Below, piece after piece: positions 60,830 to 60,960 of a stretch of DNA of 64,000 nt (within the stretch, counting starts at the first letter, position 1; each line of letters starts with the position of its first letter). This DNA comes from Escherichia coli. Its GTDB lineage: Bacteria; Pseudomonadota; Gammaproteobacteria; Enterobacterales; Enterobacteriaceae. The position numbers and the translations under genes are program-made. Under the pieces are notes generated by a model that worked only from the letters and a program-made list of their open reading frames with translations, was not told the DNA's origin and ran no database searches. The stretch is taken from NCBI RefSeq assembly GCF_003334355.1, contig NZ_QOWP01000007.1. One strand, 5' to 3'.

Positions 60830-60960
60830 TACTCTATGGATTTCGAGTTGCAGGAAGGCGGCAAGCGAGTGAACTCCAGGAGCTTACAATAGTAAGTGAC
60901 TGGGGTGAACGAACGTAGCCGCAGCACATGCAACTTGAAATACGACGAGTAAATCGTTTG
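60830..60960. repeat. ERIC (IRU) enterobacterial repetitive intergenic element between ydiJ and ydiK
   Basis: Contains GTGAACTCCAGGAGCTTACAATAGTAAGTGACTGGGGTGAACGAACG, matching the ERIC1R/ERIC2 primer-site core. Confidence 0.7.

Follow-up and report, generated by a model that had tools for sequence, protein, structure and literature searches.

The spacer between the divergent genes ydiJ and ydiK of Escherichia coli raises a simple question: what is the long imperfect palindrome that lies within it, and does it act on either of its neighbours? We address this question in a window of 64,000 nucleotides (the whole stretch analysed, from contig NZ_QOWP01000007.1 of assembly GCF_003334355.1), in which ydiJ, encoding D-2-hydroxyglutarate dehydrogenase (57683-60739, minus strand), and ydiK, encoding an AI-2E family transporter (61128-62240, plus strand), diverge from a spacer of 388 bp. 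Both gene names are confirmed by the RefSeq annotation of near-identical E. coli genomes. A first-pass annotation of this DNA had placed an ERIC element, described as an imperfect palindrome carrying the ERIC core, at 60830-60960 between the two genes, and had added that ERIC copies vary between strains and can affect mRNA stability. The element is indeed extragenic and lies between ydiJ and ydiK, and the K-12 reference record carries no annotation for it. ERIC, or IRU (RU-1), elements constitute a family of the Enterobacteriaceae known since 1990-91 (Sharples & Lloyd 1990; Hulton et al. 1991). Two further features are found on the ydiK side. A short stem-loop (GCGTCGACGATTTGACGC) at about 61083-61107 immediately precedes the ydiK ribosome-binding site and has conserved counterparts in Citrobacter and Salmonella, and the RprA small RNA gives a full-length Rfam match (118.5 bits) at 62426-62533, downstream of ydiK as in K-12.

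The assignment to the ERIC family was examined by alignment to the 127-nt E. coli ERIC consensus (Wilson & Sharp 2006) and to the Salmonella copy SeRU-1, both taken from Table 1a of PMC2759123. Local alignment pairs 60842-60951 with positions 15-125 of the reverse-complemented consensus (85.1% identity, score 141) and 60830-60951 with positions 3-125 of SeRU-1 (87.0% identity, one gap, score 164). The controls score far lower: shuffled spacer sequence peaks at 26 and the remainder of the 64-kb window at 24, so that the window contains one ERIC copy only. When nine other ERICs and the two published sequences are aligned together with the element, consensus columns 1-127 map to 60953 down to 60828 with a single 1-nt gap, and identity across all 127 columns is 81% and 86% to the two published sequences. 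The element is thus 126 bp long (60828-60953), with its consensus orientation on the minus strand, in the same sense as ydiJ. The coordinates first proposed were nearly right, and the consensus alignment put forward as their check gives a clear match over the full length. The copy is also 84-87% identical to the E. coli paralogues at ybhJ-ybhI, dxs-yajO, and pgk-fbaA.

The palindrome extends over 60827-60954 and is closed by two terminal inverted arms of 26 nt, 81% complementary to each other, which form one pair in the inverted-repeat search: ATTTACTCTATGGATTTCGAGTTGCA on the left (60827-60852) and TGCAACTTGAAATACGACGAGTAAAT on the right (60929-60954). Between them lies the central conserved inverted repeat GTGAACTCCAGGAGCTTACAATAGTAAGTGACTGGGGTGAACG (60869-60911), which contains the ERIC1R and ERIC2 primer sites and whose columns are invariant or nearly so in an alignment of 12 ERICs. 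The ERIC2 primer sequence is matched at 60890-60911 with two mismatches, against a chance expectation of no match in the whole window. The core also retains its ERIC1R half, from which one nucleotide is deleted and in which one or two are substituted; because of this deletion, the ERIC1R primer finds no match in the window at three or fewer mismatches. Relative to dinucleotide shuffles, the predicted fold is exceptionally stable on the plus strand (-61.6 kcal/mol, z -7.8) and strongly so on the minus strand (-43.3 kcal/mol, z -4.9), in agreement with the palindrome that had been described. The consensus fold of the family, derived from the 12 ERICs, comprises 29 pairs, six of which show compensatory changes. 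One of these is the terminal pair, which is U-A in the three Escherichia ydiJ-ydiK copies and A-U in the others.

The element is, moreover, a member of a multicopy family. Used as a query against 5426 complete E. coli genomes, it finds matches in all of them, the median number of places being 12 (range 2-18), and the consensus finds a median of 13 places (range 2-22). A length of 126 versus 127 bp, similarity over the full length, a conserved core, an imperfect palindrome, an extragenic and transcribed position, multiple copies, and presence or absence according to the strain are all shared with the ERIC/IRU family, and the ydiJ-ydiK element is a genuine full-length ERIC, an ordinary member of that known family. 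It nevertheless departs from the family in its termini, which read TTTA...TAAA instead of TATA...TATA, a change matched at both ends and found in all Escherichia orthologues, and in the 1-nt deletion of the ERIC1R half of its core. An ERIC-like fragment with 91% identity over 67 bp of the core is also found on plasmid pH222-1 (L004, 1501-1568), in the divergent spacer between the yersiniabactin genes ybtP and ybtA.

Could the same sequence be an independent small-RNA gene? Rfam holds no ERIC model, and the element elicits two sub-threshold matches within 60827-60992 that span it entirely: V_AS5 (RF02818; Vibrio antisense RNA 5) at 42.7 bits (E 6.5e-7) and Ysr49 (RF02766; Yersinia sRNA 49) at 29.5 bits. 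Both scores, however, are far under the respective gathering scores of 96 and 95, and the two families themselves probably resemble ERIC copies, which would explain the matches. Nor does the hairpin have the surroundings of a small-RNA gene: a consensus scan finds no sigma-70 promoter anywhere in the spacer, and there is no terminator-like site over the ERIC on either strand, the hairpin being followed by AAUAAACAUCA on the ydiJ-sense strand. A small-RNA gene of the V_AS5/Ysr49 kind is, in our view, highly improbable.

The element is nevertheless transcribed, as can be seen from the primary 5' ends mapped in K-12 by Kim et al. 2012 (PMC3415461, Table S1). For ydiJ, that table gives leaders of 229 nt (49 reads) and 80 nt (25 reads); for ydiK, leaders of 517 nt (4 reads), 230 nt (3 reads), and 62 nt (2 reads). 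We mapped the printed 51-mers exactly onto NC_000913.3 and then onto the window (offset 57053, no indels), so that all start sites discussed here are those of this one dataset, for K-12 only; PMC10301672 and PMC2760140 contain no entry for ydiJ. The main, distal ydiJ start falls at 60968 on the minus strand (exact 51-mer), 14 nt upstream of the ERIC. Therefore, the whole element is transcribed in the ydiJ sense, from +15 to +142 of the 229-nt leader; the leader would measure about 54 nt without the insert. The position relative to the start suggests TGgTACAAC (60976-60984, minus strand) as a putative extended -10 of the distal promoter, and the promoter block, TTGTTGTA(C/T)CACATTTTTTT, is conserved in Citrobacter, Salmonella, and Enterobacter. 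The 62-nt ydiK leader places its start at 61066, by arithmetic only.

Two of the other mapped ends lie in or next to the ERIC and bear on whether the element supplies promoters of its own. The proximal ydiJ 5' end, that of the 80-nt leader, is located at 60819 on the minus strand, 8 nt past the ERIC. It is either a processing site or a start driven by sequences of the ERIC arm acting as a weak promoter. A minor start in the ydiK sense, that of the 230-nt leader, lies inside the ERIC at 60898 on the plus strand, with TACAAT (60885-60890) in the ERIC loop assigned as its -10. One could therefore view the element as a promoter donor, whose arm drives the ydiJ start at 60819 and whose loop drives the ydiK-sense start at 60898: the published table lists both ends as primary starts, and TACAAT agrees with the -10 consensus at five of six positions with the right spacing from 60898. 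However, the ydiK-sense start is represented by only 3 reads, 60819 has only poor candidates for a -10 and a -35, and the consensus scan described above detects no sigma-70-like promoter in the spacer. In addition, the linker that contains 60819 is single-stranded, AU-rich, and flanked by a hairpin on each side, as is typical of RNase E contexts. We consider it unlikely that the ERIC acts as a promoter donor.

This linker emerges from the predicted fold of the 229-nt leader, in which the ERIC forms a self-contained hairpin and a neighbouring 57-nt piece forms a second one, with the single-stranded AU-rich linker between the two. The ribosome-binding region is predicted to fold identically in the long leader and in the leader without the insert, and a direct effect on translation initiation is therefore not expected.

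Not all E. coli strains carry this long leader. The ydiJ-ydiK locus is present in 5425 of 5426 complete E. coli genomes, a fraction of which align in two pieces with 175 bp missing. Counting with junction-spanning 50-mers against the 5426 genomes assigns the long allele to 4254 (78.4%) and a short, empty allele with a 213-bp spacer to 1164 (21.5%), which bears out the strain-to-strain variation anticipated by the first-pass annotation. Neither junction is matched in 6-8 of the genomes. The short-allele strains, among those listed, include NU14, UTI89, IHE3034, APEC O18, LF82, NC101, and O25b:H4-ST131, all of which we take to belong to phylogroup B2. Variation of ERIC loci between strains has already been described (reviews PMC10969869, PMC3184786). 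Genomes lacking the ydiJ-ydiK copy show only 3-6 ERIC matches, compared with 10-16 elsewhere, with one exception at 11; B2-type strains may have far fewer ERICs overall. The dxs-yajO ERIC is polymorphic as well, as a clean 125-bp difference (L087 601-722 versus L089), and an even sample of 39 genomes contains about 18 that are empty at that site, one ST131 strain included.

In contrast to this clean difference at dxs-yajO, the alleles of the ydiJ-ydiK locus differ by 175 bp, the 57-bp piece included. When K-12 and the window are aligned with two short-allele strains, about 60770-60944 proves to be absent from the short allele, at whose junction GTCTGTGAT is followed directly by GAGAGATTAATCG. 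The most economical description of the sequences would be a replacement of 8 bp of the short allele (AGAGATTA) by 183 bp (60770-60952). The empty allele has TTAA where the filled allele has the termini TTTA...TAAA, and the complex junction left by this exchange of 8 bp for 183 bp hides any target duplication. The reviews of the family (PMC10969869, PMC3184786) name no transposase that would mobilise it.

The presence of the 57-bp piece (60770-60826) follows that of the ERIC. The piece is unique: it occurs in single copy in 4256 genomes versus 4254 with the long allele, the same set, and it is confined to the long alleles of Escherichia. It holds a 7-bp inverted repeat, CTTTCAG/CTGAAAG, and is bracketed by a 6-bp direct repeat read from the sequence, GTGATG, with its left copy at 60764-60769 and its right copy at 60818-60823 (both plus strand), the latter containing the proximal ydiJ 5' end at 60819. 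Two possible origins were considered and rejected. As a truncated second ERIC, the piece scores no better than shuffles when aligned permissively, in both orientations, with three ERIC sequences; as a repeat or nearby duplication, it has no second copy in the window, in the compared loci, or in the E. coli genomes.

Which of the two alleles came first can be judged from other species. We surveyed 80 loci by a YdiK scan, with one genome per species. In most Enterobacteriaceae of this survey, the ydiJ-ydiK spacer measures 196-213 bp and has no ERIC, and several Citrobacter species have a spacer of exactly 213 bp, equal to the short E. coli allele. The short junction GTGATGAGAGATTAATCG is similar to the Citrobacter sequence GTGAGAGTTAATCG and keeps TTAATCG, which is lost in the long allele. 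Because both its length and its junction match Citrobacter, and TTAATCG is retained, the empty allele looks ancestral on these comparisons. The converse, a short allele derived from the long one by deletion, is ruled out by the Citrobacter-like junction and length together with the bases that are missing from the long allele. Four other genomes share the long allele, its 57-bp piece and ERIC peculiarities included: E. albertii, E. whittamii, the Escherichia sp. strain E1V33, and the divergent SCPM-O-B-8794, which is labelled E. coli. The short allele is carried by Escherichia sp. MOD1-EC7003. Within Escherichia, each allele is thus represented on both sides of species boundaries.

Such a distribution invites the question of whether selection maintains the element. 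The ERIC of the window strain differs from that of E. albertii at 6 of 128 sites (4.7%), whereas 40.6% of the four-fold degenerate sites of ydiJ and ydiK differ between the same strains. We withdrew the corresponding proposal of purifying selection on the ERIC, as divergence is equally low in the first 50 codons of both genes (60589-60739 and 61128-61277), where only 2 of 24 and 2 of 27 four-fold sites differ from E. albertii. Since the low divergence of the ERIC is common to neighbouring four-fold sites, it is no evidence of constraint on the element itself. Among Escherichia species, the four-fold sites of these first 50 codons are 5-10 times less diverged than those in the rest of ydiJ and ydiK; in comparisons with Citrobacter, Salmonella, and Enterobacter, the first 50 codons show a mild reduction only. 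Such a pattern points either to a recombination tract of about 0.7 kb or to some unusual constraint acting locally, and a low-divergence stretch of this size, whether it arose by recombination between Escherichia lineages or from a local effect, accounts for the observations no less well than selection on the element. Pairing covariation among six Escherichia orthologues is equally uninformative: 96.8% of cells are paired, a value reached by 257 of 500 shuffles, with too few substitutions.

These data give weight to a neutral alternative, in which the ERIC is a dead mobile-element relic carried as a passenger in the ydiJ leader, with no measurable effect on either gene, and owes its conservation to recombination around the locus or to a clock that runs slowly there. 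The element is missing from about 21% of E. coli genomes, including the successful ST131 and UTI89 lineages, and the dxs-yajO ERIC is polymorphic in a like manner. Moreover, the fold at the ribosome-binding site is unchanged, the orthologues show no significant covariation, and the low divergence reaches about 150 bp into both coding regions. On the other hand, a hairpin of 128 nt that begins 14 nt from the 5' end of the transcript, with another 5' end mapped just after it, makes some effect on the fate of the RNA likely, and ERICs of Yersinia are reported to change transcript levels (PMC10969869, PMC3184786). We rate the chances of a purely neutral passenger at somewhat below even, and yet nearly as high as those of a role at the RNA level.

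A further aspect of the locus is that its spacer has received ERICs more than once. On the minus strand, the element abuts the motif ACGCAAACG (60955-60963; CGTTTGCGT on the plus strand), which spacer comparison shows to be conserved and to mark the insertion point in other genera. ERICs are found in the ydiJ-ydiK spacer of Enterobacter sp. JUb54 (L043, 2213-2339, same orientation) and Enterobacter genomosp. O (L050, 2203-2328, opposite orientation); a further genome (L052) has two, at 2092-2214 and about 2340-2465. In Citrobacter amalonaticus S646 (L022, about 2145-2350), the ERIC has an internal insertion of about 78 bp and scores 104.5, whereas shuffled sequence reaches at most 44.7. Only a few bases separate one end of the element from the conserved motif ATCGTTTGCG in L043, L050, and one of the L052 copies, the arrangement also seen in E. 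coli; the L022 ERIC lies about 25 bp further on from it. The record of L052 (CACSKA010000003.1) is titled Chryseobacterium sp. 18061 and contains enterobacterial ydiJ and ydiK (83-89% identity) along with the ERICs; it is evidently enterobacterial and probably mislabelled or contaminated.

The copies of these other lineages are only 69-75% identical to the Escherichia copy, below the identity of the latter to its own paralogues, and are therefore independent insertions. The spot used in Escherichia has thus received ERICs of separate origin in at least four further lineages of enterobacteria. Unrelated inserts are also seen at the ERIC point, in Salmonella enterica arizonae and diarizonae (L018, L021) and in two Citrobacter species (L011, L024); they measure about 50 bp (GC-rich) and about 90 bp and lie just upstream of TTAATCGTTTGCG. 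The ydiJ leader could be a place where ERICs are repeatedly acquired and retained, as a domesticated module that tunes D-2-hydroxyglutarate dehydrogenase expression, an idea that we hold to be quite doubtful. With respect to the motif itself, ACGCAAACG is conserved across genera and occupies +6 to +14 of the ydiJ transcript on the minus strand, and it presumably corresponds to the left half of the PurR operator consensus; our literature search found no link between PurR and ydiJ or this motif.

The above data establish what the element is, where it lies, that it is polymorphic, that its empty allele is the ancestral one, and that it is transcribed through in K-12. We consider it likely that this full-length ERIC/IRU copy in the ydiJ leader is old and no longer mobile, and we infer that any action it has is exerted at the RNA level. 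In this proposal, the insertion would have taken place in an ancestor belonging to Escherichia, within the first 15-20 nt of the ydiJ 5' leader, with or beside the 57-bp piece. In strains with the long allele, the conserved ancestral ydiJ promoter fires at 60968 and transcribes straight through the ERIC, producing a leader of 229 nt instead of about 54 nt, with two extra predicted hairpins, that of the ERIC followed by that of the 57-nt piece. By analogy with ERICs studied elsewhere, the leader hairpin and the AU-rich linker could then alter the processing or stability of ydiJ mRNA. The 5' end at 60819 may mark an RNase E-type processing site beside the terminal repeat or, alternatively, the weak promoter of the ERIC arm.

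The closest precedent comes from Yersinia, in which ERICs expose an RNase E site beside the terminal repeat and change transcript levels (PMC10969869, PMC3184786, citing De Gregorio 2005). The general remark of the first-pass annotation that ERICs can affect mRNA stability is thus literature knowledge, and it is relevant at ydiJ because the K-12 start sites place the ERIC inside the ydiJ 5' leader. As in Yersinia, the ydiJ element is co-transcribed with its gene, and an RNA 5' end is mapped a few nucleotides beyond the terminal repeat. However, the Yersinia cases treated in the reviews concern 3' ends, with the ERIC downstream of the affected gene, whereas the ydiJ copy lies upstream, in the 5' leader, and is likened to them from its position and the mapped ends. 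A further parallel is offered by the Correia/NEMIS elements of Neisseria, which are also small, palindromic, mobile, and co-transcribed, and which can carry promoter-like sequences. These differ in undergoing RNase III processing and in belonging to another host group, and the likeness drawn here is one of description.

For the ERIC family, the recurrent insertions and the cross-species polymorphism are tidy examples of how these elements behave, and they leave knowledge of the family unchanged; for the locus, the importance of the element extends little beyond annotation. If selection, as opposed to a target-site hot spot, accounts for the pattern, the ydiJ leader would harbour a long-lived balanced polymorphism or one spread by recombination. 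Lastly, the ERIC makes the ydiJ leader about four-fold longer in most E. coli, and B2-type strains and other E. coli consequently have different ydiJ leaders, a distinction that is relevant to studies of ydiJ expression and to comparisons between strains.
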